A stretch of DNA of 13,965 nt, from the IMG/VR virus record IMGVR_UViG_2681813421_000009. The stretch is one strand, 5' to 3'. The notes under the pieces were generated by a model. It was not told the origin of the DNA. It saw only the letters and a list, made by a program, of their open reading frames with translations, and ran no database searches. Shown in pieces: positions 1-13,792 of this stretch. The translations under genes were made by a program, and so were the position numbers. Each line of letters begins with the position of its first letter. Within the stretch, counting starts at the first letter, position 1. Origin of the DNA: a virus. Its lineage: Duplodnaviria > Heunggongvirae > Uroviricota > Caudoviricetes.

Positions 1-1269
1 ATGCCAAAACTCACAGATATGCAGATCCGCGCATGGATAAAGGCGGGAGACAGATTTGATGGCAAGGCAGACGGCAACGGCCTTTATATTTGCTACCCCA
101 AAAACTACACAGTCCCGTTCTGGCGATTCCGATATAAGCTCGCAGGAAAACAGCGGGCTATGGTTATCGGCTCTTACTCCGAACTGTCACTATCAAAAGC
201 CAGAGAAACAGCAAAAGAGCTGTCAGCCAGAGTTGCTCTTGGCTATGACGTAGCAGCAGAAAAACAGGAACGAAAAGCTGAAGCACTGGCAAAAATGGAG
301 GCTGAGAAAAACGCCATGCGCGTTTCAGATCTGGCCGCCGAATACTTCGAGCGACAGATACTTCCGAGATGGAAACATCCCGATATCCTTCGCCGGAGAA
401 TTGATAAGGATATTAACCCCTGCATTGGGCATATGAAGGTAGAGGACGTTAAGCCACGTCACATTGACGACATGTTAAAAGGTATCGTTGACCGAGGAGC
501 ACCAACGATAGCAACAGATGTATTACGCTGGACACGCCGTATCTTTGACTATGGGATAAAACGCCACGCTCTGGAGATAAACCCTTGTTCAGCGTTTGAA
601 GTATCTGATGCTGGTGGTAAAGAGGTTTCCCGCGACCGTTGGCTAACTCGCGATGAGCTTATCAGGCTATTCGAGGCTATGCGCACCGCAAAAGGATTCA
701 GCCGCCAGAACGAACTGACATTTAAGCTATTGCTGGCACTATGCGTTCGTAAGATGGAGTTATGCGCCGCACGATGGGAAGAGTTTGATTTAGATGGTGC
801 GGTATGGCATTTGCCGGAAGAACGCAGCAAAAACGGAGACCCTATTGATATACCTCTACCTTCCCCAGCCGTTGAATGGTTGAGAGAGCTACACACCTTT
901 TCATGTAATAGCGCATGGGTGCTTCCGGCCAGGAAGATGCAAAACAGAATGATCCCACATATTCAGGAAAGCACTTTACCCGTAGCACTGGCTAAGGTTC
1001 GCGCCGAAATGCCGGATGTGCCTAATTTCACGATTCACGACTTCCGACGCACCGCACGTACTCATTTAGCAGCATTGGGTGTTGATCCTGTCGTGGCGGA
1101 ACGATGCCTCAATCATCGCATTAAGGGCGTAGAGGGGATTTATAACCGTCATCAGTATTTTGATGAGCGTAAAGCAGCACTGGCACAGTGGGCAGATCTG
1201 CTGGTGGCACTGGAAAGCGGGAAAGACTACAACGTAACGCCATTCGATAAAGCCCGGAGGCAAATGTGA
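1..1269 (+). CDS. int: P4-family tyrosine integrase (site-specific recombinase)
   Basis: 422-aa ORF. C-terminal catalytic region carries the tyrosine-recombinase H-x-x-R box (HDFRRTARTHL) and a downstream Tyr-containing segment (GIYNRHQY); overall size and layout match P4/CP4-57-type integrases. The ORF begins at window position 1, so upstream att/tRNA context is not visible. Confidence 0.9.
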   Translation: MPKLTDMQIRAWIKAGDRFDGKADGNGLYICYPKNYTVPFWRFRYKLAGKQRAMVIGSYSELSLSKARETAKELSARVALGYDVAAEKQERKAEALAKMEAEKNAMRVSDLAAEYFERQILPRWKHPDILRRRIDKDINPCIGHMKVEDVKPRHIDDMLKGIVDRGAPTIATDVLRWTRRIFDYGIKRHALEINPCSAFEVSDAGGKEVSRDRWLTRDELIRLFEAMRTAKGFSRQNELTFKLLLALCVRKMELCAARWEEFDLDGAVWHLPEERSKNGDPIDIPLPSPAVEWLRELHTFSCNSAWVLPARKMQNRMIPHIQESTLPVALAKVRAEMPDVPNFTIHDFRRTARTHLAALGVDPVVAERCLNHRIKGVEGIYNRHQYFDERKAALAQWADLLVALESGKDYNVTPFDKARRQM

Positions 1270-2387: not shown

Positions 2388-2606
2388 ATGACAGTACACA
2401 AGCCAGCATCATCAGCTATCCCAACAACTGGATACATCCGTCGCTTTCGCATGCCGGAATTGCTAGGTGTTTCACTGCCTACTATTGATAGATGGGTTAA
2501 AAATGGCACTCTTCCACGCCCAGTGAAGCTAACAGATAACGTGACTGCGTTTGATGCGGTGGAAATTAATAACTGGCTGGCAGAACGCCGCGGGAAGGTG
2601 GCCTGA
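2388..2606 (+). CDS. alpA: AlpA-family (phage/prophage) transcriptional regulator, helix-turn-helix
   Basis: 72-aa ORF; the segment RFRMPELLGVSLPTIDRWVKNGTLPRPVKL is the characteristic AlpA HTH pattern. Purine-rich stretch (GAGAGG) upstream of the ATG; position after the integrase as in CP4-57/P4-like islands. Confidence 0.85.
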   Translation: MTVHKPASSAIPTTGYIRRFRMPELLGVSLPTIDRWVKNGTLPRPVKLTDNVTAFDAVEINNWLAERRGKVA

Positions 2607-3049: not shown

Positions 3050-3883
3050 ATGAACATCGAAAAAAGCAGATTAATTTCTGAGGCCGCCCCTCATCTGAAC
3101 GCCTCTCTGGGCACAATTAACGGTAATGAATTTGCCGCAATTGTCCCGGTTATTTCTGGTCATATAGGCGGGCGTGAAACCAATATTGTTAGCGCAAAAG
3201 CGTTACACAAAGCGTTGGGCGTGGGAAAAGACTTCTCTACATGGATCACTGATCGCATCTCTGAATATGACTTCACCATTGGGCACGATTACTCAGTCCA
3301 TAAAACAATTTCCCCAAATTTGGGGAAAAGCCCGAATGACGCGGCTTACAGCAAGATTAAGCAGTCTGGCAGACCCGGCAAAGACTATCTGTTAAGTGTC
3401 GGAATGGCGAAAGAACTGGCAATGATCGAACGCAATGATCAGGGTCGCGCTATCCGCCGTTATTTCATCCAGTGCGAGAAAGAATTACAGCGTAGCGTGC
3501 CTGAAATCGCCGCCCGCTATCGTCGCCAGCTAAAAGCCCGTATCAGTGCCGCAAACAACTTCAAGCCAATGTGCGATGCGCTGAATATGGCCCGTGCCGA
3601 GATGGGGAAAACGACGCAGCAACACCACTACACAAACGAGAGCAATATGATTTCTCGTATCGTTCTTGGTGGGCTAACTGCTAAGCAGTGGGCGCGGATA
3701 AATGGCTATTCTGGCGAACCTCGCGACCATATGAACGCAGAACAGCTTGAGCACCTCTCATATCTCGAAAGCACCAATATCACGTTAATTGATATGGGCA
3801 TGGAATATGAGCAGCGCAAAGGAGAACTCACCCGCCTGTCGCAACGCTGGCTCGCCAAGCGTCTGGAGGCGGTCCATGTTTAA
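3050..3883 (+). CDS. phage antirepressor (AntA-like N-terminal domain plus KilAC domain)
   Basis: 277-aa ORF. SAKALHKALGVGKDFSTWITDRISEYDFTIGHDYSV resembles the AntA/Bro-N pattern and DYLLSVGMAKELAMIERNDQGRAIRRYFIQCEK resembles the KilAC (ANT) domain. RBS ACGGAG 8 nt upstream. Confidence 0.8.
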   Translation: MNIEKSRLISEAAPHLNASLGTINGNEFAAIVPVISGHIGGRETNIVSAKALHKALGVGKDFSTWITDRISEYDFTIGHDYSVHKTISPNLGKSPNDAAYSKIKQSGRPGKDYLLSVGMAKELAMIERNDQGRAIRRYFIQCEKELQRSVPEIAARYRRQLKARISAANNFKPMCDALNMARAEMGKTTQQHHYTNESNMISRIVLGGLTAKQWARINGYSGEPRDHMNAEQLEHLSYLESTNITLIDMGMEYEQRKGELTRLSQRWLAKRLEAVHV

Positions 3884-4058
3884 GCCGACAGGAACACCAC
3901 AACCTCAAAAACGCTACAAAGATGCCCACGGAGCACTCGTTACTGTCGAAAGCGTGTCTCACAACCGAGTGACGTTTTATCGCGACGGGTATCAATCGCC
4001 ATGCGTACAACCGCTGGCACGTTTCATGAAGGAGTTCGCGGAGGTTAACAAATGCTAA
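3876..4058 (+). CDS. small hypothetical protein (60 aa)
   Basis: ATG at 3876 overlaps the upstream stop (ATGTTTAA), indicating translational coupling. The six-frame ORF from 3789 is probably an N-terminal over-extension. Confidence 0.5.
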   Translation: MFKPTGTPQPQKRYKDAHGALVTVESVSHNRVTFYRDGYQSPCVQPLARFMKEFAEVNKC

Positions 4059-4713
4059 CCGCCCAGAAGAAGATATTTTCACTGGCTGGTATGTCGCCAA
4101 AATCCAGCAATATGACAGCAAAGTCAGACATTAATACAGCAGATACAAGCAAAGTTTATCATTTGCTGGTGGTAGGAGCGGATGCCTTAACTATGTCAGA
4201 AATTACGGTCGATGGTGTTAGCGTTGAGAAGGTCAGCGGCTATGCCAGAGAATTTCTGGTCGTAGATGGCTTTCTCTGCTCGTGTAGTGACTCCACAAAA
4301 ACCTTCGTCCACGCGCGTGACGTTAACGAAATGAGCGCGATGTACTGTGCTTCTGGTTCTTCCAATAGTGAGTTTTCGGAGTCCATAAAAAAGAGCTTGC
4401 CGTTATGCGGCAACACGGTTTATGGTTATAAGGCACCTCATAAAACGGGTGCCGGGATTGGCGTCCTAAAAATTCTGAAGGCGACATATGACGCGCCAAG
4501 CGTCTTTTTTTATGTCGTAGGTCTGACTCACCCATTTTTTGGGCGTTGGTGTATAATCCAGCGCCTTTGTCAATCAATGGTGGCTCAGGCGGGGGCTTCT
4601 TCGGAAGCGCCGGTATCCTTCAGAGCCGGTTACGCCAACCCTGTCTGGGCTACCACCAGCGAAATTGGCGTTTCCGGTGGTAGCGTAACCTGCTATCTGA
4701 AGGAGGCTGCCAC
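4052..4713 (+). CDS. hypothetical protein, 3' boundary unresolved (six-frame ORF runs without a stop to 5119)
   Basis: ATG at 4052 overlaps the upstream stop (ATGCTAA). The N-terminal ~150 codons look protein-like, but the 3' part crosses a strongly structured region and the RBS-supported Icd-like gene in another frame. End coordinate is a placeholder, not an observed stop. Confidence 0.3.
4595..4690 (+). ncRNA. candidate structured regulatory RNA upstream of icd (possibly C4/CI-type antisense RNA)
   Basis: Hairpin GCTTC-TTCG-GAAGC (4595-4608) with a UUCG tetraloop. Nested stem GGTTAC (4628-4633) / GTAACC (4685-4690) enclosing a perfect 9-bp stem GCTACCACC (4649-4657) / GGTGGTAGC (4676-4684). 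Located immediately 5' of the Icd-like gene. Confidence 0.3.
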
Positions 4714-4908
4714 ATGCTGGCTACTACCCCTACCCAAAAAACGCAATTTATCTGGATTATCGCCGCAGTTCGCCGCGATTGCCCGACAATTACCGCCAAA
4801 ATTCATCATATTGCTGCCGAGTCTGAACGCGATGCTCGCCGTTCTCTGGTGCGCGATCACGTCTGCTTTTTTGCTGGTCGTATCCGCATGGAGGTGGCAC
4901 ATGATTAA
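4714..4908 (+). CDS. Icd-like protein (host cell division inhibitor Icd family)
   Basis: 64-aa ORF with strong RBS AGGAGG at 4701-4706, 7 nt before the ATG. Sequence pattern FIWIIAAVRRD...ERDARRSLVRDHV.FFAGRI matches my recollection of Icd-like proteins of P1/P4-type elements. Confidence 0.7.
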   Translation: MLATTPTQKTQFIWIIAAVRRDCPTITAKIHHIAAESERDARRSLVRDHVCFFAGRIRMEVAHD

Positions 4909-5119
4909 AACCTACGATGTGCATATGGATCCCCTCGAACGCACAAGCCAGATCATCACACTGACAGAAGTGATTAACGACATTCTGGTGAGCAACTCTC
5001 CCTCACGAGACGAAAGACTGAAGGCGTTACTCGCGATATTGGATCTCGCCGTTCGTGACGTTCATTTCCTGCTGGAAGGTGGCGAAATGCCAGTAAAAAC
5101 GGGGGCAACCAATGAATAA
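4901..5119 (+). CDS. small hypothetical protein (72 aa)
   Basis: ATG at 4901 preceded by GGAGGTG (4890-4896) and overlapping the Icd-like stop (ATGATTAA). Same frame as the long 4052 ORF, but this internal start has its own RBS. Confidence 0.5.
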   Translation: MIKTYDVHMDPLERTSQIITLTEVINDILVSNSPSRDERLKALLAILDLAVRDVHFLLEGGEMPVKTGATNE

Positions 5120-5306
5120 CTCAATTAATACCCCTCGCCTTACGTCCGCACTTCAATTAATCGAGCAAGCAGCGGCTGTCCTGGTTGCTGTCAGTCTTTC
5201 GGCTGAAGAAATGGACGCTGCTGATGTCGTGGATGCGATTAAAGCGTGCTCATCTTTGGTTAACGATGCCCGTGCAGAGCTGGTAATTCTTGGTGGTGAA
5301 AAATGA
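5112..5306 (+). CDS. small hypothetical protein (64 aa)
   Basis: ATG overlaps the upstream stop (ATGAATAA); part of the coupled operon. Confidence 0.5.
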   Translation: MNNSINTPRLTSALQLIEQAAAVLVAVSLSAEEMDAADVVDAIKACSSLVNDARAELVILGGEK

Positions 5307-5566
5307 ATATCAACTTAATTTATCGTCATCCGTGTGAGCTGGAAATTGAATCATTGCTGGGGCGCGAAGAGCCATATCCAGACACATTCACTCCCGCAGA
5401 TTGCGCGACTGAACGGCTTACCAGAGCGCGCACAGGTCTGGTTCATGTGATGAATGAGATTATTCCCTCGGTGGGAGGGGAACAGGCGACAGTAATCAAT
5501 AGCTGGCTACAAAAAGTTACCTCCCTGATAGATATCAGTTTAATCGATGTGGAGAGTGCGAAATGA
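5303..5566 (+). CDS. small hypothetical protein (87 aa)
   Basis: ATG overlaps upstream stop (ATGA); RBS GGTGGTGA upstream. Confidence 0.55.
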   Translation: MNINLIYRHPCELEIESLLGREEPYPDTFTPADCATERLTRARTGLVHVMNEIIPSVGGEQATVINSWLQKVTSLIDISLIDVESAK

Positions 5567-5784
5567 CCAACATCCAGCTCATTGAAGCGCAATGTCGCAT
5601 CGAACAGGTTCAGACTGTTTTAGGGTTCTGGCTTGAAGGGGCCAGCCCAAGCAACAGAGACAAGTTAATGATTGGCGCGGTTATGTCACTGCTCAATGGC
5701 GTACCAGAAGCTATTCAGGAAGCGGACGAATTGTTGGGCAAATATGAGTTACAGAATCATTCAGGCGAGGCGAAACATGAATAA
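5563..5784 (+). CDS. small hypothetical protein (73 aa)
   Basis: ATG overlaps upstream stop (ATGA); RBS GGAGAG upstream. Confidence 0.55.
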   Translation: MTNIQLIEAQCRIEQVQTVLGFWLEGASPSNRDKLMIGAVMSLLNGVPEAIQEADELLGKYELQNHSGEAKHE

Positions 5785-6379
5785 TTTCTTAACTTTCCAT
5801 GCAGAAGCAACGCCTGGCGGCGTAAACATCATGTACCGCAGCAACGATGGCATGACAGAACGCGTTGAGGCCGTCTCATATATTGATGCCGTAAATCGTC
5901 TGGATGCCGGGGATTATGACGATAAACCAGATGAAGGTATGTCAATACATCTCGCTATTGCCGATGGCGGCAACCAGGGATATTTCGATTACACATCACA
6001 GCATAACGTCATTATGTGGAGATGGCTGATCGCAACAGTATTCATGCTGGAAATGAGAGAGGAAAACGGCACCGTCAGCATTATTGATGACAGTGGCAAT
6101 CATTCCGTGGTTTCTGTTTATTCCAATGGCATCGTCGCCATGCCGCTGTATCCAGTAGCAGAGCGCCTCGCTATGGCAAACAACATTGAGGGCGCAATGA
6201 TCGAGAAATATGGTGTTGATGTCGGAACAAAGAATGCCATCATTTTTTACAGCAACATGTTCGATGTCGAACAGGGAACACTCACTTCGTTTGGGCGAGA
6301 AGTGCTTGCCGATCTTCACAACAGCTTTATTGCCGAACTAAACGAAAACGGCATCCCAGAAGCACCAGTGACGCACTAA
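5777..6379 (+). CDS. hypothetical acidic protein (200 aa)
   Basis: Internal ATG at 5777 (MNNFLTF...) overlaps the upstream stop (ATGAATAA) and has RBS AGGCGAGG. The six-frame ORF from 5672 is probably an over-extension into the preceding gene. Confidence 0.55.
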   Translation: MNNFLTFHAEATPGGVNIMYRSNDGMTERVEAVSYIDAVNRLDAGDYDDKPDEGMSIHLAIADGGNQGYFDYTSQHNVIMWRWLIATVFMLEMREENGTVSIIDDSGNHSVVSVYSNGIVAMPLYPVAERLAMANNIEGAMIEKYGVDVGTKNAIIFYSNMFDVEQGTLTSFGREVLADLHNSFIAELNENGIPEAPVTH

Positions 6380-6391
6380 ACGGGGGCCAGA

Positions 6392-8743
6392 ATGCGAAAC
6401 ATTGATCTTATCCGTCAGGTTATCAGTGCGTCTGAAAACAACTGGCCTCATGTGCTGGACTGCCTGAACATAAATGTCCCTGACTCTCCGCGCCGTCATG
6501 CTCCCTGCCCTGCATGTGGGGGCAAAGATCGATTCCGGTTCGATGACAACGGGCGCGGTAGCTTCATCTGTAATCAGTGCGGCGCTGGTGATGGGCTGGA
6601 TTTAATTAAACGCGTAAATAACTGCGACACAACAGAGGCGGCGCTTCTTGCCGCTGATGTTCTGGGTATTGATTACCGGACAACGGAAACACCAGAAGCC
6701 ACCAGCCAGAAACGGGAACAACTGGAAACCGAGCGCCAGCGACGCGAACAGGAGCGCCTGAAAAGGGCAGAGAAGGACGAACAACAAAGACGGGATACGT
6801 TTTCCCGTCAGTTTGATGACATGCGCAGAAAGGCTGTAAACGGCAAATCTGATTATCTGGTTGCGAAAGGGGTAGGTGATTTTACATTCCCTGTGTTGCC
6901 CGATGGATCTCTGTTGCTGGCGCTGGTGGATAAATCCGGCGCAGTCACAGCAGCACAGACTATTACCTCACATGGTGAAAAAAGACTCCTGACAGGTTCA
7001 GCAAAGCGAGGGGCATATCACGCCATAAACGCACAGAAACGACCTCACAGCATCATAATTGCTGAGGGGGTGGCTACCGCCCTGTCGTGCCATTTAATTC
7101 GCCCTGACGCAATGACAGTGGCAGCAATCGACGCTGGCAACCTGTTGCCAGTAGCGGAAGTCATGCGCAGAACATATCCACAGGCACAAATCATCATTGC
7201 CGCAGATAACGATCACCAGCAAGGAAACTCCGAAAGTGGAGGGATCAACACGGGGAAAGATGCCGCAGAGAGGGCCGCTATTTCCGTAGCTGGCTGGGTG
7301 TCTCTGCCACCGACTGACTATAAAGCCGACTGGAACGACTATCACCAACAACACGGGCTGGCGGCAGCCACAGCAGCATTTAAAGATTCGATGTACCAGC
7401 CACGGGGGAAAGGGGCGCAGGTGAAAAATCACAAACAGTCAGTCGGGGCGCTGAATGAGATCAGTTCTGGCGAGGTGTTAAGCGATGATGAAATTGCTGT
7501 CCTCGAAGAAATCAACCGGACGTTTACGCATGTCACCATCGGCGGGAAACACAAGGTGGTGTCGCTAAAGCCTTCTCAAACCGGCGGTGTATCGCACGTT
7601 TTCGAGGATTTATCACAATTTCAGCATTATTTTCATCATAAACCGAGAGTCGCCAGAAAGCTGGCGGGATCGGCGTGGCTGTCATGGAGTGGGAAGAACT
7701 ACAAGCCAGGAGGCGTAGGATTTTATCCAGTACCAGACAAATGCCCTGACGATGTTTTTAATCTGTATGAGGGGCTGGCACTGGAACCAATTGAAGGAGA
7801 TTGCACGGTATACCTTAATCACCTGTTGCAGGTTGTCTGTGCCGGTAATGAAGAGGCATACCAATATCTTATCCAGTGGATGGCGCACATTATCCAAAAG
7901 CCTGATGAAAAACCGTCCGTGGCAATCGTGATGAAATCTGTCCCGGGCACAGGGAAAGGCACAACGGTTAAACCGCTGCTGCAAATACTGGGGCAGTACG
8001 CCGCCCACATTAACGGGGCGGGACATATTTCAGGGCGCTTCAATTCAATACTTGCTAACAAGCTACTGGTATTTGCTGACGAAGTGACGATCCACAAGCC
8101 GTCTGAAGCTGACAGACTTAAAGCGATTATTAGCGAACCGACGTTTAACCTTGAGCGCAAGGGAATTGATGCTGAACCAATGCCGAATTTTGCCCGGTTG
8201 ATATTTGCCAGTAACAGCACACAGGTATTACAGGCAGGGATAAGAGAGCGCCGCTATCTCGTGCTTGAGCCATCTCCTGAAAAAGCACAGAGCCGGGAGT
8301 ATTTTGATCGGCTGTACAGTTGGCTTAATGATGGCGGTGCCGCAAAGTTGCTTTGGCATCTTAAAGGGGTGGATCTCTCAGGTTTTGACCCTCAACGAGC
8401 GCCACAGACCGATGCCTTACGTGAAGAAATCTTGCTGGGGCTGTCTGGCGTTGAATTGTTTCTTTATGGCGAGCTAATCAATGAACCTCCGTTTAATGGC
8501 GAAGTCCGTTTGTTTGCAAAGGATATGGTTAGTCGATTTGTAGCGTGGTCGCTTGAGCGTGGGGAAAAGCTTAAAGAACCAGCTGCCAGATCACTACTGG
8601 GTAAATCACTTGCACAAATGGGGCTGGTGAAGCATGGAAGACCAGACCGAGGGAATGGCGTGTTCTACGAACTACCAGAGGTCGGAGTTCTACAGGCTGC
8701 GTTTGCCCGTCTGATCGGTATGGGGGGTTATGATGTTTTTTAA
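6392..8743 (+). CDS. P4-alpha-type primase/helicase (Zn-ribbon, Toprim primase, D5-like helicase)
   Basis: 783-aa ORF. N-terminal zinc ribbon (CPACGGKDRFRF...FICNQCG), Toprim motifs (IIIAEGVATALS and IIIAADNDHQ), C-terminal Walker A (VPGTGKGTT, about 7945-7970) and Walker B (LLVFADEV). RBS GGGGG upstream of the ATG. Confidence 0.9.
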   Translation: MRNIDLIRQVISASENNWPHVLDCLNINVPDSPRRHAPCPACGGKDRFRFDDNGRGSFICNQCGAGDGLDLIKRVNNCDTTEAALLAADVLGIDYRTTETPEATSQKREQLETERQRREQERLKRAEKDEQQRRDTFSRQFDDMRRKAVNGKSDYLVAKGVGDFTFPVLPDGSLLLALVDKSGAVTAAQTITSHGEKRLLTGSAKRGAYHAINAQKRPHSIIIAEGVATALSCHLIRPDAMTVAAIDAGNLLPVAEVMRRTYPQAQIIIAADNDHQQGNSESGGINTGKDAAERAAISVAGWVSLPPTDYKADWNDYHQQHGLAAATAAFKDSMYQPRGKGAQVKNHKQSVGALNEISSGEVLSDDEIAVLEEINRTFTHVTIGGKHKVVSLKPSQTGGVSHVFEDLSQFQHYFHHKPRVARKLAGSAWLSWSGKNYKPGGVGFYPVPDKCPDDVFNLYEGLALEPIEGDCTVYLNHLLQVVCAGNEEAYQYLIQWMAHIIQKPDEKPSVAIVMKSVPGTGKGTTVKPLLQILGQYAAHINGAGHISGRFNSILANKLLVFADEVTIHKPSEADRLKAIISEPTFNLERKGIDAEPMPNFARLIFASNSTQVLQAGIRERRYLVLEPSPEKAQSREYFDRLYSWLNDGGAAKLLWHLKGVDLSGFDPQRAPQTDALREEILLGLSGVELFLYGELINEPPFNGEVRLFAKDMVSRFVAWSLERGEKLKEPAARSLLGKSLAQMGLVKHGRPDRGNGVFYELPEVGVLQAAFARLIGMGGYDVF

Positions 8744-8772
8744 TATAGTCTTTTTACAAGAAGATCGTTTTT

Positions 8773-8876
8773 ACCTGTACCACCTATACCACTTTGCTAA
8801 TTCAGCATTAAAAACAATGCGTTATAGTGGTACAGGTCAATATCTTACCTATACCAGACCTGTACCACCTATACCA
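8773..8876. repeat. Iteron-like repeat cluster downstream of the primase
   Basis: Perfect 19-bp direct repeat ACCTGTACCACCTATACCA at 8773-8791 and 8858-8876; inverted copy GTGGTACAGGTC at 8827-8838 facing GACCTGTACCAC at 8857-8868; CCTATACCA occurs three times. Confidence 0.6.
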
Positions 8877-8919
8877 TTAACAAACGCATTTCTTCTGGCT
8901 GGCTGAGAGGGAACAACCA

Positions 8920-9150
8920 ATGATGAGCACACCATTTTACAAAGTGCGCCAGTTAGCTTCTTCCTCTGGCTGGCAGCTACGGTTTGAGGGGCGTTCAGAC
9001 TGGCTACCCATTGCGGCATGGGCGAATGTTGAAATGTGTATTGACGGCGATACCGTTGAAATCATTATTCCCTGCGTGGCAAGTCGGGACGGCTGTATAG
9101 AGCCAACAGATATGGCAGCAGAAATCAGAGAGGTAAAACATGAACAATAA
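8920..9150 (+). CDS. small hypothetical protein (76 aa)
   Basis: ORF with RBS GAGAGGGAA upstream of ATG 8920; sits between the two repeat clusters. Confidence 0.5.
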   Translation: MMSTPFYKVRQLASSSGWQLRFEGRSDWLPIAAWANVEMCIDGDTVEIIIPCVASRDGCIEPTDMAAEIREVKHEQ

Positions 9151-9877
9151 CTATTGCATACTGCAGGGAATGACCAGAACGGAGCGCGAAGAATTAAAAA
9201 GTTTCGCTACACAGTGCGGGAATGCTGGCGACATCCAAAGTCTGGAACGCACTTTAATTATGATTGCGCACTGGATGCGCCAGGGGCAAAGAGTTTCATT
9301 TACTGAATATGCCAGCCAGTGGACAGAGGCACAGCGCGAACGGAGCGACGGTAATCACTCAACACCCGAAATGGCGAAGCAATGGCCTTTCAGTGGTAAA
9401 CGCTGTATCAGTCCCGGTGGTTCAGATTATTACCCTGCTGGTGTGGGAGATGAGCCATGTTGTGACGAGACTGAAATCCGCCACGCAGTGACAGTAATTA
9501 CCGCTGAATACCCACAATTTAACCTTGACGGACTGGCGCTCCACAACCGGAATGCGGACTGGGAAAACCCGCTTGATAACCCGTCATTTATCGTATCGGC
9601 GAAAAGCTGCCTGAGATGGATCAGAGACAACGGGATGAGTAATGCCCAGATTGAGAGCTTCCCGCAGGATAACCCCACATCTGACACGTTGAAGCATGAA
9701 GTGGAGCGATATAACCAGATAAACCACCAGCACAGTGATCACCCGCACTATATCCCCAACGGAGCATTTATTGCGGCGATGGTGGCAAGCGGCTACAAGG
9801 TTAAGCCAGCGGGAAGAATGAACGCATTTTTCAATATTTCAAAAAAGGGATTATGTGCTGCTATGGGTAAAAATTAA
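9140..9877 (+). CDS. hypothetical protein (245 aa)
   Basis: ORF overlapping the upstream gene by 11 nt; RBS GAGAGG upstream. No family recognised. Confidence 0.55.
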   Translation: MNNNYCILQGMTRTEREELKSFATQCGNAGDIQSLERTLIMIAHWMRQGQRVSFTEYASQWTEAQRERSDGNHSTPEMAKQWPFSGKRCISPGGSDYYPAGVGDEPCCDETEIRHAVTVITAEYPQFNLDGLALHNRNADWENPLDNPSFIVSAKSCLRWIRDNGMSNAQIESFPQDNPTSDTLKHEVERYNQINHQHSDHPHYIPNGAFIAAMVASGYKVKPAGRMNAFFNISKKGLCAAMGKN

Positions 9878-9882
9878 ATAAA

Positions 9883-9986
9883 TGGTACAGGTCTGTACAG
9901 GTGGGGAGAGGTCATTTTTACCCACCTGTACCACCTGCAGGCCGCGCCACACAAGGGTTTGTGACATGGTGGTACAGGTGGTACAG
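9883..9986. repeat. Second iteron-like cluster including an 11-bp perfect inverted repeat
   Basis: Same core motif (GGTACAGG / CCTGTACC) in at least five copies: TGGTACAGGTC 9883-9893, GTACAGGTGGG 9895-9905, CCCACCTGTACCACCTG 9921-9937, GGTGGTACAGGTGGTACAG 9968-9986. GTACAGGTGGG (9895-9905) and CCCACCTGTAC (9921-9931) form a perfect inverted repeat with a 15-nt spacer. Confidence 0.6.
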
Positions 9987-10139
9987 CAAAAACAGCGATT
10001 TTCTTTATAAGGTATGTTTTGCTCATCTGGCAGACGGAGGTATTCGCTGCGGTTTGGCACATAGCCCAGAACAGCAAAGAGTTTTACGAGACTTTTGTAA
10101 AATCCAGTGTACAAGGGCGTGACGTTTTTGAAGGTGAGC

Positions 10140-10158
10140 ACTACGAAATTTTCGTAGT
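10140..10158. promoter_or_regulatory. 19-bp perfect palindrome (candidate operator)
   Basis: ACTACGAAA-T-TTTCGTAGT centred at 10149 in the non-coding stretch between the repeat cluster and the cargo operon. No flanking T-run on either strand, so not a terminator. Confidence 0.3.
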
Positions 10159-10351
10159 TCAAAAAATAGCCTCTGAGATGTTGTTATGCCTGTTCAGCAA
10201 ACCATCCGCATAGCTGATCGCGAATCAAATTACCAATGGAGCCAGAAGCAAGGGCAGAACTGGAAAGCGCCTGCCGTGAAGAGTAATGCGACTCCATAAA
10301 TATAGTTTTTAGAGTCCATAAAAAAACTGTCAAAACCTGACATACAGAACG

Positions 10352-10384
10352 ATGCCACCAGCTACTGAACGGTGGCATTTTTTT
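10352..10384 (+). terminator. Rho-independent terminator
   Basis: Stem ATGCCACC (10352-10359) / GGTGGCAT (10371-10378) with an 11-nt loop, followed by a run of seven T. The opposite strand lacks a 3' T-run. Confidence 0.5.
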
Positions 10385-10480
10385 GTGCTATTTGTTTCAT
10401 ATTTTGCAATCACAATGATGAATGTTGCGTTTTATGAAACTATAATGACTGTTGTTTTATACAGTTCTAAGGGGGGCGTT

Positions 10481-10654
10481 ATGGCTATTTCAGTAAAGCC
10501 AGTATTGATAAGTGAGAAGCAAATGGAAGCGATAAAGAAAATTCAGGAGGAGCAGCGTAAAAAATCAGAGGTAGGAGTTGCGCCAACGATCCACGAAATT
10601 GCTCGGGGATTAATGGATAAGGCGCTGGCTTACACTTTAACTGGACGTGGGTAA
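10481..10654 (+). CDS. small DNA-binding-like protein (57 aa, possible ribbon-helix-helix fold)
   Basis: ATG at 10481 with RBS AAGGGGGG 5 nt upstream. The six-frame ORF from 10352 would overlap the terminator hairpin and has no RBS. The RHH call is a guess from size and charge pattern only. Confidence 0.5.
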   Translation: MAISVKPVLISEKQMEAIKKIQEEQRKKSEVGVAPTIHEIARGLMDKALAYTLTGRG

Positions 10655-10658
10655 ATTT

Positions 10659-12002
10659 ATGGCTACGTGGCAACAGGGTATTAATTCTGGTGGTTTTCTG
10701 GCTGGCATCGGTGCGCAAAATGAGAATGCGCCAAAGGCAAGCGACATTAACGCAACGCTTGGTCTGATCCGCGAAAACAATGAACTGGCTCGCTCAGGTG
10801 CAAATAACGTTGCTCTGACAGGTCTTCGTGGTCTGGCTGGAGTTGCTGACATTTATAAGCAGCAGCAACAGCAGGAACGTAAAGCGGCATTCCAGAAAGG
10901 TTATGCAGATGCTTATGCGTCCGGTGACAGGGAGCAGATGCGTAATCTTATTACAGCATTCCCAGAAGAGTTTGAGGAAGTCCGTAAAGGGATGAGTTAT
11001 GTCGATGATGCTCAAAGGGATGATTATGGCAATCTGGCGCTCAAAGCACAGGTAGCCTCATCGCTTGGTCAGGGCGCATTTGGCAGGTTCATGATGGATA
11101 ATGAGCAGGAGATGCGTCGTTTAGGTATCCCTCCAGAAACTATTGCTGAAATGCAGGTTAATGACCCGCAGGGCTTCCAGCATTTCGCAGGTAATCTGGC
11201 GCTGTTTTCTCTCGGTCATGAGAAGTATTTCGATATCAAAGATCAAATGGAAGGTCGTCGACTTGAGCAAGGGCGACTGGATGAAAGTATGCGTCAGGCT
11301 GACATGGAGAACGCGAGAGGATGGGCAAATATCCAGAACGCTCAACTAGACAGGGCTCAGCGAGCACAAATTCACTCAGATGAGATGGGATTGAAGCTAA
11401 TGGAGCTGGGGCAAAAAGGTAAGCCGTCAGCAGACTTAATTAAGGGATTAAATTCTGACATTACCAATTTTGGCAAAAATTATAACTCTGTCAGAGCGGC
11501 GGCAAACTCTCTGCAAGCCCTTAGCAAGGTAAATACTGGCGCTGCCCAACTTGGGATTATCTTCAACTACATGAAATCTCTTGACCCGCAGTCAGTCGTT
11601 CGTGAAGGCGAACAGGTTCAGGTAATGCGGTCTGATGGCATATGGGGACAAATCAAAGGATACATAGACCAGCTTAATGCTGGAAACGGCCTGTCGCAGG
11701 AGGCAAAGGATAACATTGTTAACGCCGCAAAAATCAACGCCAATGCTATGGGGCAGCAGTTTAACCAGCAGGTTGACGAGTATCTCGATACATATGGAGA
11801 AACTATTCCTCAGGGGCTAAGAAAAAGCCTTGAAAGAAGGAAAGCGAAGCTATTTGACGATGTTTCCGGGCAGCCTACATCACAGGCTGGCACTGGACAG
11901 GCAAAAGCGGCAACCGGAGGAATATCAGAAGGCGCAACGGCAACCAACCCTAAAACTGGTCAGAAAATCATTTACAGGAACGGAAAATGGCAGCAAATGT
12001 AA
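10659..12002 (+). CDS. hypothetical Gln-rich, coiled-coil-like protein (about 447 aa)
   Basis: ATG at 10659, 4 nt after the upstream stop; a GTG at 10647 is the alternative start. Contains a QQQQQ run and many Q/E/R-rich predicted helical segments. No catalytic motif recognised. Confidence 0.6.
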   Translation: MATWQQGINSGGFLAGIGAQNENAPKASDINATLGLIRENNELARSGANNVALTGLRGLAGVADIYKQQQQQERKAAFQKGYADAYASGDREQMRNLITAFPEEFEEVRKGMSYVDDAQRDDYGNLALKAQVASSLGQGAFGRFMMDNEQEMRRLGIPPETIAEMQVNDPQGFQHFAGNLALFSLGHEKYFDIKDQMEGRRLEQGRLDESMRQADMENARGWANIQNAQLDRAQRAQIHSDEMGLKLMELGQKGKPSADLIKGLNSDITNFGKNYNSVRAAANSLQALSKVNTGAAQLGIIFNYMKSLDPQSVVREGEQVQVMRSDGIWGQIKGYIDQLNAGNGLSQEAKDNIVNAAKINANAMGQQFNQQVDEYLDTYGETIPQGLRKSLERRKAKLFDDVSGQPTSQAGTGQAKAATGGISEGATATNPKTGQKIIYRNGKWQQM

Positions 12003-13792
12003 TCTTACCGGAAGGTTTTGTGCTCGATGAACAACCTGATAACTCACAGTTTCCTGATAGTTCACAGCTTCCTGATGGTTTTGTGCTTGATGCCCAACCA
12101 GAACAGCAGCAATCACCTTTGGTTTCACCAGAGGAAAATTCCAGACAGGAAAATGTTGTTAATAATGCTAACGGTTTCGACCGTTTTATGTATGGCGTTC
12201 TCAGTGGATTGATGGATGTTGGTAAAGGTGTTGGCCTGTTTCAGGATATGACACCAGAAGAGCAAGCCGCAATTCAGTCTCTACAGCAGAAGTTAGCGGC
12301 AAAACCATCAACCGCACAAGATGTTGGTGAGTTCGTTGGACAAGCAGCGCCATTTGTTAGTGGTGGTGGGATTATTTCTCAGGTTCCCAAAGGGGCGGCA
12401 AGACTGGCTGCCGCCGCAGGGCTTGGTGCTGGAGAAGGGGCTATTGTAGCCAATGGAACAAATAGCGATGTTGCTTCCGGCGCTGCTATTGGCGCTGTGG
12501 CTGGCCCTGTAGCCGAACTTGCTGGCCCTGCAATTAATAAAATAGCTGGGAAATTAACCAAGAAGAATGTTTCTTCGATTCCAGATATTGAGGGGATTAC
12601 TCCTGCCGAAGAGAAAATTCGTAAGTTATCTGCACAAGGCAACCCAAATCTTGCCTCTTCGCTTGAAGGGCTAGATCTAAAACCTCAGAAAGAAATTGTT
12701 GAGGCTGCAAATAGGCTTCATGTTGATTCAGTTCTTCCTTCTCATTTATCAGGAAATGAGCAATACCAAGCTGTAGAGCAAGCCCTAAAGTCACGGACAG
12801 GATCAGCGTTAAAAGCTCAAGAAGATAAAGCAATAAGCGAATTAGCCTCTAGTGCTGGCAAGATAATCGATGATGTTGCTGGTGCGCCAGATGCGTTAGC
12901 TATGAGCGAAAAATATATTTATCAGATAAATAGTAGAATGGAAGCACTAAAAAACCGTAGTGATCAGTTATATAAACGTGTTGATTCCGCTCTATCACCA
13001 AGAACAAAAGTCGAAGCAAATAACACAAGCACTATGCTGGAAAAAATCGCTGATGATTTAGGAGGGTGGGATAATCTTGACCCAATAGAAAAGCGAGTTT
13101 TTACAGCAATAAACCCCGGCCCAGATAGCATCCTAACGTATGCAAATTTAAACAGGCAAAGGCGTTTAGTTGGTGATGCCCTAAATAAAAAGCAGGGGCC
13201 ATACAAAGATGCTGATAAAGAAGCGCTATCAAGACTATATGGAGCTTTAGCTGAAGACCAAAAATCTGTCTTATCCAATACTGGATACTTGCGAGATTTC
13301 GAAGTCGCACAACGCCTTGTAGCTATGAGAAAAAACTTAGAAAGGCAAATGGTAAATCTTCGCGGGAAAACACTTAATGGGGATATAGCGTATAAAGTAA
13401 CGAATTCTCTTCAATCTATGGCAAAAGGTGATGCGAGAGGGTTTCGTGAGATTATGCAAAATACTCCATCAAGAACATTGCGAAGGGAGCTAGTAGGAAC
13501 AGCATTAAGAGATATGCTTTCCTCTGGGAAGCGTGGGGCCGACTTTAATCCATCTGGCTTCGCAGATTGGTGGCAAAACTTGCAACACAGTGGACAGCTA
13601 AAGACTTTGGCTGAACATTTGCCAAAAGAAACAATGAGCGGACTATATGATGTATACAAAGTTGCCAGAGCAATAAAAAATGCTAAAGCGCATGAAATAT
13701 CTACTGGTAAGCTGAATGAGTTTGTAAACAGATTTAATCGGGTAACAGCTCCATACGAACTAGCAGCAAAGGTAGTGACTCCAACTTACTGA
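11987..13792 (+). CDS. hypothetical large protein, 3' end truncated by IS1 insertion
   Basis: ATG at 11987 with RBS AGGAA, overlapping the upstream gene by 16 nt. N-terminal tandem motif [10 protein letters not shown] / [10 protein letters not shown], then a Gly/Ala-rich segment, then an AT-rich-encoded K/E/N-rich C-terminal region. Native sequence ends at 13770; the last seven codons (VVTPTY-stop) are read from the IS1 inverted repeat. Confidence 0.6.

Follow-up and report, generated by a model that had tools for sequence, protein, structure and literature searches.

The viral record IMGVR_UViG_2681813421_000009 is a stretch of 13,965 nt (referred to here in its full length as the window) in which a gene for a 783-amino-acid (aa) primase-helicase is followed directly by a cluster of short repeats, the candidate replication origin described here. 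The window also encodes a P4-type integrase, an AlpA-family regulator, and AntA and Ash proteins, and its structural-type genes are limited to two that encode P22-like ejection proteins. The segment at positions 8600 to 9150 is 100% identical in enterotoxigenic Escherichia coli (ETEC) H10407 and was found in 130 of 5,426 complete genomes; the window is an E. coli chromosomal island that resembles phage satellites. Judged from its genes, the combination of integrase, AlpA-type regulator, and primase-helicase is the layout of a phage-inducible chromosomal island (PICI) or of a P4-like phage satellite. The order int, alpA-type regulator, pri-rep, and candidate ori, in one orientation and without a full set of phage structural and lysis genes, is that of Gram-negative PICIs. 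The coordinates of the features are listed in Table 1.

The primase-helicase gene ends with a TAA codon at positions 8741 to 8743, and the first repeat begins 30 nt downstream, in agreement with a first-pass annotation of the window that had placed it about 30 bp past the stop codon. The perfect 19-nt direct repeat reported in that annotation (ACCTGTACCACCTATACCA) is indeed present at positions 8773 to 8791 and 8858 to 8876. It is composed of 9-bp units of the form CTRTACCAN, of which the cluster contains five in direct and one in inverted orientation, at offsets of 0>, 9>, 54<, 74>, 85>, and 94> (> for direct and < for inverted units). The inverted unit (GTGGTACAG on the plus strand) is separated by 13 nt from CTATACCAG, which in turn is separated by the dinucleotide "ac" from the second copy of CTGTACCAC. 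The core that is conserved, with a period of 9 bp, is CTRTACC(A) and not TGTACCACC as first proposed, and of the inverted copies of the core that had been described, a single one (8827 to 8835) lies between positions 8773 and 8876. Nor does the feature end at position 8876: a second cluster of CTRTACC units occupies positions 9882 to 9986. We refer to the two clusters as half 1 and half 2. With up to one mismatch, ACCTRTACC occurs 13 times in the window (2.85 copies expected; none of 200 shuffled sequences reached 13), and six exact copies fall within 104 bp.

Table 1. Features of the window discussed in the text, in order of position
Feature	Position	Strand	Remarks
P4-type integrase	1-1269		
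AlpA-family regulator	2388-2606		PF05930, 26.4 bits
Primase-helicase (Pri-Rep/P4 alpha-like presumed initiator), 783 aa	6392-8743	+	Pfam: Zn_Ribbon_Prim, Toprim_3, DUF5906
Exchangeable replicon module	7414-10077	+	Primase C-half (aa 341-783), iteron cluster 1, orf76, orf245, iteron cluster 2
Predicted winged-helix domain of primase C terminus, aa 706-760	8507-8671	+	
Candidate origin, half 1	8773-8877	+	Two direct units, AT-rich spacer, one inverted unit, three direct units
Iterons 1 and 2 (CTGTACCAC, CTATACCAC)	8775-8783, 8784-8792	+	Tandem, 9-bp period; columns invariant in alignment A3
AT-rich spacer, 34 nt	8793-8826		26.5% GC; candidate melting site
Iteron 3, inverted (plus strand reads GTGGTACAG)	8827-8835	-	Invariant in alignment A3
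Iterons 4 to 6 (CTATACCAG, CTGTACCAC, CTATACCAT)	8849-8857, 8860-8868, 8869-8877	+	
orf76	8920-9150	+	Conserved small gene between the halves; annotated coding sequence in H10407
orf245	9140-9877	+	Second gene between the halves; possible winged-helix-like C-terminal domain (weak signal)
Candidate origin, half 2 (P4 crr-like)	9882-10006		Inverted units 9882-9890 and 9892-9900 (degenerate), direct unit 9926-9934, inverted units 9969-9977 and 9978-9986
GC box GCCGCGCC	9941-9948		In the spacer of half 2
A-tract/T-tract tail CAAAAACAGCGATTTTCTTT	9987-10006		Ends half 2

We collected homologs of the primase together with 80 genomic loci and based the iteron statistics on 25 loci in which the C-terminal half of the primase (the C-half) is 42 to 80% identical to that of the window. 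In the iteron-bearing loci, which range from Enterobacterales to Methylococcaceae, CTGTACC or CTATACC occurs 3 to 12 times, in both orientations, within the 400 bp past the stop codon. The density of CTRTACC in these 400 bp is 17.6 per kb, compared with 0.245 per kb elsewhere (i.e., a 72-fold difference; 25 loci). The repeats are found in Buttiauxella, Xenorhabdus, Pantoea, Rahnella, Hafnia, Erwinia, and Moellerella, and also in Providencia, Proteus, Methylobacter, Methylomonas, Colwellia, Glaciecola, and Oceanospirillaceae. In an alignment of 12 genera (alignment A3), which reaches from E. coli to Methylobacter and Oceanospirillaceae, there is no or almost no variation in the iteron columns, and the spacer sequence varies. 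Over 16 loci, the spacer is mostly 32 to 35 nt long (43 to 44 nt in loci L092 and L021) and has a mean GC content of 33.6%, compared with 51% for the 3 kb that precede the stop codon, most of which is the primase gene. The first unit lies 11 to 41 nt past the stop codon in most of about 25 related loci and approximately 170 to 195 nt past it in L009 and L010. Conservation in related elements, the check suggested in the first-pass annotation, is thus borne out, since the repeats are kept in both position and sequence after homologous primase-helicase genes of distant genera.

The repeats are associated with one particular part of the primase-helicase. When all proteins of the window were searched with tblastn against the 25 iteron loci, the C-half of the primase (aa 341 to 783) was the sole segment present throughout, unlike AlpA, the integrase, orf76, orf245, and even the N-terminal Toprim domain. 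Two syntenic E. coli islands (L086 and L087) align by blastn with positions 3392 to 7413 of the window at 93 to 95% identity and with positions 10078 to 11257 (L087; from 10230 in L086) at 98%. The DNA in between (i.e., 7414 to 10077) is replaced in these islands by a DUF927-type C-half and a different origin, which consists of three GTTGGTTCA units, an AT-rich stretch, and three TGAACCAAC units. Another locus (L084) combines an N-terminal domain that is 79% identical with a D5_N/Pox_D5 C-half and with TATCCCTAC iterons in the same ten-unit layout. The N-terminal Zn-ribbon/Toprim domain (positions 6392 to 7413) is 75 to 86% identical at the amino acid level in the primases of L084, L086, and L087 (P0044, P0052, and P0066, respectively); the C-terminal helicase module joined to this domain is of three kinds (DUF5906, DUF927, and D5_N/Pox_D5), with a recombination joint near codon 341. 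Among 32 more distant DUF5906 helicases (28 to 38% identical), about 20 have 9-bp-period iterons of their own past the stop codon, and close relatives among them share iterons (e.g., CTTGGACC of the Paracoccus type and CCTTGGAC of Bradyrhizobium). On the basis of the tblastn results, the module swaps, and the separate iterons of the distant helicases, we conclude that the iterons travel with the helicase and the C-terminal half; each iteron sequence is peculiar to the presumed origin-binding half of the initiator and is inherited together with it. The first-pass annotation had regarded an absence of the repeats from otherwise syntenic elements as damaging to its proposal. The repeats are absent from L086 and L087, but these islands have also exchanged the helicase half and carry other iterons in place of those of the window, a result that favors the proposal. 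As candidate readers of the iterons, AlpA, the integrase, and orf245 were rejected, since they are absent from most iteron-bearing loci.

A variant of this association occurs in Sansalvadorimonas (L026), where seven CTGTTCC iterons (positions 4880 to 5075) follow a helicase that is 34 to 43% identical. In comparison with the family consensus, its predicted recognition helix is changed from PAA-R to TRA-G and its GRxxRG wing is shortened. As a single case, this covariation between protein and iteron is suggestive at best.

These distributions also bear on a regulatory reading, according to which the repeats bind AlpA or the orf245 product and control an orf76-orf245 operon without any role in replication. 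The location of the repeats (in the 176-bp intergenic region upstream of orf76), the weak winged-helix-like signal in orf245, and the enrichment of TCTGGCTGGC nearby are in its favor. However, at least 17 loci carry these iterons without homologs of AlpA, orf76, or orf245 in the fetched flanks, a scan of positions 8500 to 9200 detected no sigma-70-like promoter in the repeat region, and the design of the array equals that of mapped origins. Since most iteron loci lack the AlpA and orf245 genes and no promoter-like site is present, we regard an operator without a replication function as very unlikely. A site that serves both as an origin and in autoregulation is conceivable.

The primase-helicase has the features expected of an initiator of this kind. 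Its open reading frame (ORF) is of full length, and all invariant motifs are present. Residues 1 to 337 are 33% identical to the primase domain of P4 alpha (BLASTP; E = 9e-41), and residues 475 to 654 match the superfamily 3 (SF3) helicase of NrS-1 (6k9c/6k9e) in the PDB; the query of this sequence search was the entire primase, which matched the NrS-1 helicase only and not the P4 origin-binding domain. The C-terminal structure model is a winged helix, as in the origin-binding domains of P4 alpha and of the Rep protein of Staphylococcus aureus pathogenicity islands (SaPIs) (PMC9371898); a Foldseek search of the PDB with this model gave no significant match, and the top matches were all winged helices. 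An SF3 helicase followed by a C-terminal winged helix, the architecture predicted here from the model, characterizes the initiators of P4-, PICI-, and SaPI-type origins. In BLASTP comparisons, the N-terminal primase domain aligns with that of P4 alpha, the C-half does not, and no similarity to the Pri-Rep protein of the PICI EcCICFT073 was detected.

We predict, with an estimated probability of about 80%, that the repeats are the iterons of the island's own replication origin, that this origin is of the P4/PICI type, and that its reader is the helicase and C-terminal half of the primase. This prediction draws on the sequence and on analogous systems. As in origins of the P4, PICI, and SaPI types, the iterons lie right past the initiator gene, and opposed sets of short iterons flank an AT-rich region. 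The stretch first reported (8773 to 8877) is most likely only the first half of the origin and has the design of P4 ori. In the proposed mechanism, the 783-aa primase-helicase would act as the initiator, and its C-terminal SF3 helicase together with the predicted winged helix would recognize the 9-bp unit CTRTACCAN. The oppositely oriented units that flank the 34-nt AT-rich spacer would then allow opening of the duplex and self-loading of the hexameric helicase, after which the Toprim domain of the same protein may prime synthesis. The initial suggestion of primase iterons comparable to P4 ori or crr (cis replication region) is supported by layout, conservation, and covariation with the C-half; it can be refined in that the reported stretch follows the ori design and the crr-like part lies at positions 9882 to 10006.

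The type-1 iterons of P4 are bound by the alpha primase-helicase, and this binding has reportedly been described in work by Ziegelin and Lanka. In the GenBank annotation of P4 (NC_001609; type-1 repeats read in the orientation of alpha), ori consists of CTGTTCACC t CTGTTCACC, 35 nt of AT-rich sequence, GGTGAACAA, 12 nt, and three copies of CTGTTCACC (offsets 0>, 10>, 53<, 75>, 86>, and 96>). This array of two direct units, an AT-rich gap of approximately 35 nt, one inverted unit, about 12 nt, and three direct units is nearly superimposable on half 1, and it shares with half 1 a 9- to 10-bp period and a core of similar shape (CTGT..ACC). The domain order of P4 alpha is likewise a homologous primase domain (Zn-ribbon and Toprim), an SF3 helicase, and a C-terminal winged helix. 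In contrast, the iteron of the window is CTRTACCAC, and the combination of the iteron TGTTCACC with an alpha-type D5_N/Pox_D5 helicase and its origin-binding domain was not found there; the helicase half is DUF5906, without BLAST similarity to the D5_N/Pox_D5 half of alpha. P4 ori is located upstream of the alpha operon, whereas half 1 is directly 3' of the primase gene, and the type-2 repeats of P4 have no counterpart in the window. A search of the papers available to us for the motif as an iteron and for the biology of P4 crr found nothing relevant.

Half 2 sits immediately past the stop codon of orf245 (the ORF at 9140 to 9877), and its units are found at offsets of 1109<, 1119<, 1151>, 1196<, and 1205<. 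Subtraction of 991 bp yields 118, 128, 160, 205, and 214, the same offsets as in the contiguous origins of L018 and L019 (the full series in Rahnella L019 is 0>, 9>, 55<, 75>, 86>, 95>, 128<, 160>, 205<, and 214<). The array of the window is thus the contiguous array of its relatives with approximately 991 bp inserted past the sixth unit, and half 2 aligns unit for unit, also in sequence, with the second half of the contiguous origins. In most relatives, about 15 bp separates the two halves, as against about 990 bp in the window. The halves are also separated by orf76 and orf245 in L091 of E. coli (primase identity, 88%), L092 of Salmonella (69%), and L002 of Buttiauxella (64%), all three of which have intact iterons in both halves. 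Only orf76 lies between them in Xenorhabdus (approximately 290 bp), where half 2 precedes the orf245 homolog. Homologs of orf76 with 41 to 74% amino acid identity occur at the same position in Buttiauxella, Pantoea, and Xenorhabdus; searches of Pfam and PHROG with orf76 gave no match.

P4 crr resembles half 2 in that it is located directly 3' of the primase gene and represents a second cluster of the iterons of ori. Its repeat unit, like half 2, ends in two inverted units spaced at 9 bp and then an A-tract/T-tract. After the final two inverted units, tails similar to CAAAAACAGCGATTTTCTTT also occur in Methylobacter L013, L028, L017, and both P4 crr repeats. The P4 element differs in being a duplication (2 × 120 bp), while half 2 of the window is present in a single copy and so does not qualify as a crr proper; furthermore, crr is approximately 4.7 kb from ori, and the halves of the window are approximately 1 kb apart. 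The GC box of half 2, as (A)GCCGCGCC(A), recurs in L018, L021, L091, EcCICFT073 (L082, approximately 9186 to 9194), and L084 (approximately 5671 to 5679). It is common to three iteron families (CTRTACC, CTGTCTACC, and TATCCCTAC) and absent from P4 crr and from the PICI EcCIRM13514. The box might bind a shared host factor or serve in priming.

Two further observations concern the surroundings of the halves. The motif TCTGGCTGGC (up to one mismatch) occurs nine times in the window (1.05 expected; none of 200 shuffled sequences reached nine), including positions 8894 to 8903, 8965 to 8974, 10697 to 10706, 2572 to 2581, and 9311 to 9320 (minus strand). One copy lies between half 1 and orf76, 25 nt upstream of the orf76 start; the motif also follows the unrelated DUF927-type ori of L086/L087, and it is found in inverted orientation past half 1 in Xenorhabdus. 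In Xenorhabdus ehlersii (L003), a second full cluster resembling half 1 is situated upstream of the primase gene (-4603 to -4508 relative to the stop codon), and the copy right past the primase stop codon is degenerate. The upstream cluster may stem from tandem elements or from the relocation of a half.

In functional terms, the ori of Gram-negative PICIs is the nearest precedent (PMC6092414). Fillol-Salom et al. (2018) described the origins of E. coli PICIs as organized like those of SaPIs (PMC6092414). The EcCICFT073 pri-rep-ori segment supports plasmid maintenance, a rep mutant gave no colonies, and deletion of ori gave significantly fewer (PMC6092414). The origin of EcCICFT073 (L082) contains CTGTCTACC iterons at offsets of 0>, 9>, 58<, 77>, 88>, 97>, 142<, 210<, and 219<. 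It has in common with that of the window the location right after pri-rep, two iteron sets around an AT-rich region, the ten-unit layout, and the GCCGCGCC box in the second half, and the island order is likewise int, alpA, pri-rep, and ori. Differences lie in the iteron itself (CTGTCTACC), in the Pri-Rep protein (584 aa, with a P4-type helicase and without a Toprim domain), and in the contiguity of the EcCICFT073 origin, as opposed to an origin split by two genes. The Pri-Rep allele of the window also differs from those of EcCI042, EcCIRM13514, and EcCIATCC25922, as well as from that of EcCICFT073 (EcCIED1a lay outside the comparison). EcCIRM13514 (L089, positions 7611 to 7845) carries the exact P4 type-1 iteron CTGTTCACC in a contiguous array that resembles ori plus crr. 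The Pri-Rep encoded there shares 49% identity with the half of P4 alpha that holds the helicase and the origin-binding domain, and a P4-like C-half is thus paired with the P4 iteron. Since both the iteron and the Pri-Rep protein of EcCIRM13514 match P4, the replicons of P4 and the PICIs overlap more than the 2018 paper suggests.

The SaPI origin lies right downstream of rep and contains 6 to 12 iterons around an AT-rich center, with at least two per side in opposite directions, and the winged-helix domain at the C terminus of a self-loading Rep helicase reads them (PMC9371898). It resembles the candidate origin of the window in its iterons directly past rep, AT-rich center, opposite orientations, and SF3 helicase initiator; SaPI iterons, in contrast, are 5 to 6 nt long, differ in number and layout, and occur in a Gram-positive host. 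Binding by the initiator and a requirement in cis have been demonstrated for the P4, SaPI, and EcCICFT073 analogs (PMC6092414, PMC9371898).

A further comparison is with iteron plasmids (RepA, pi, and TrfA), which also have repeated initiator sites beside an AT-rich region. These plasmids carry tandem iterons of approximately 17 to 22 bp, and their WH1-WH2 Rep proteins recruit the host DnaB, often with DnaA boxes. The units of the window are instead 9 bp long and occur in both orientations, and the adjoining protein is a primase-helicase; the locus is thus not an origin of the iteron plasmid kind.

The cargo of the island (10647 to 13792) includes genes for two P22-type DNA ejection proteins (i.e., an Inj_translocase and a gp16-like "DNA transfer protein"), an unusual cargo for a PICI-like island. 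PICIs carry capsid-remodeling genes, in contrast to the P22-type ejection proteins of the window, where no search aimed at capsid-remodeling genes was made.

Several points weigh against a functional origin at this locus. Because the C-half lacks BLAST similarity to both P4 alpha and the EcCICFT073 Pri-Rep, the likeness among the origins could be partly convergent. We infer binding by the C-terminal domain, melting of the AT-rich spacer, firing, cooperation of the halves, and activity of the window copy from sequence features and analogy. Approximately 990 bp interrupts the origin of the window and might impair its function, half 2 has been lost in three relatives that kept half 1 (L034, L093, and L007), and the first ejection-protein gene has an internal stop codon in the H10407 copy (i.e., a pseudogene among the cargo), so that the island may be decaying. 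The inverted units, if transcribed, would also give a stable hairpin (z = -3.5).

The hairpin raises the question of an RNA element, i.e., of a terminator, attenuator, or processing site formed by the inverted units in a primase-orf76 transcript. The 176-nt intergenic region folds at -41.5 kcal/mol, but inverted iterons produce a hairpin automatically, and neither a U-tract nor a terminator-like site was detected in the repeat region (scan of positions 8500 to 9200). An Rfam search at a permissive threshold identified no family and gave two spurious sub-threshold matches to eukaryotic microRNAs (E of approximately 0.3). A hairpin also leaves the tandem direct 9-bp units and the second cluster unexplained, and an RNA element is therefore highly improbable as an account of the repeats.

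The interruption, the losses of half 2, and the cargo pseudogene would fit a relic, i.e., an origin of P4/PICI-type descent whose copy in the window no longer fires, owing to the insertion of orf76/orf245 or to decay of the island, and whose repeats persist through recent common descent. Against a relic stand the intact iterons in both split halves of E. coli L091, Salmonella L092, Buttiauxella L002, and Xenorhabdus L004 to L008 (50% primase identity), although the surrounding sequence has diverged by about 33% at the nucleotide level. The primase ORF is also of full length and has retained all invariant motifs, and P4 functions with ori and crr approximately 4.7 kb apart. We consider a relic unlikely.

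The distance between the halves ranges from approximately 15 bp (most relatives and canonical PICIs) through approximately 290 bp (Xenorhabdus) and 1 kb (E. coli, Salmonella, and Buttiauxella) to approximately 4.7 kb in P4, which suggests that the halves cooperate at a distance. As a tentative extension, which we hold to be possible rather than probable, the origin family may be intrinsically two-part and tolerant of separation, with the initiator bridging the halves by looping. P4 crr, long a puzzle, would then have come from the second half of a PICI-type origin by displacement and duplication, and the nested genes, including orf245, could be coupled to replication or modulate copy number.

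P4 ori and crr and the origins of SaPIs and PICIs already exemplify the kind of site described here. The apparent novelties are the CTRTACCAN iteron family with its Toprim-DUF5906 initiator, the wide distribution of this family, the split that contains genes, and the correspondence of P4 ori and crr to the two halves of a contiguous PICI-type origin. The basic picture of satellite replication is unchanged, and the importance of the finding is moderate. A concrete replicon (i.e., an initiator half and its presumed cognate 9-bp iterons) can nevertheless be assigned to an island that approximately 130 complete E. coli genomes carry, that of ETEC H10407 among them, and the assignment extends to relatives across Gammaproteobacteria. 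One origin blueprint is common to P4, the Gram-negative PICIs, and the DUF5906-type family despite the exchange of helicase modules, which partly contradicts the published view that the organization of PICI origins is unique among replicons. In evolutionary terms, P4 crr finds an explanation in the variable distance between the halves, and the module swaps provide ready-made specificity pairs for understanding how SF3 helicase initiators read DNA.
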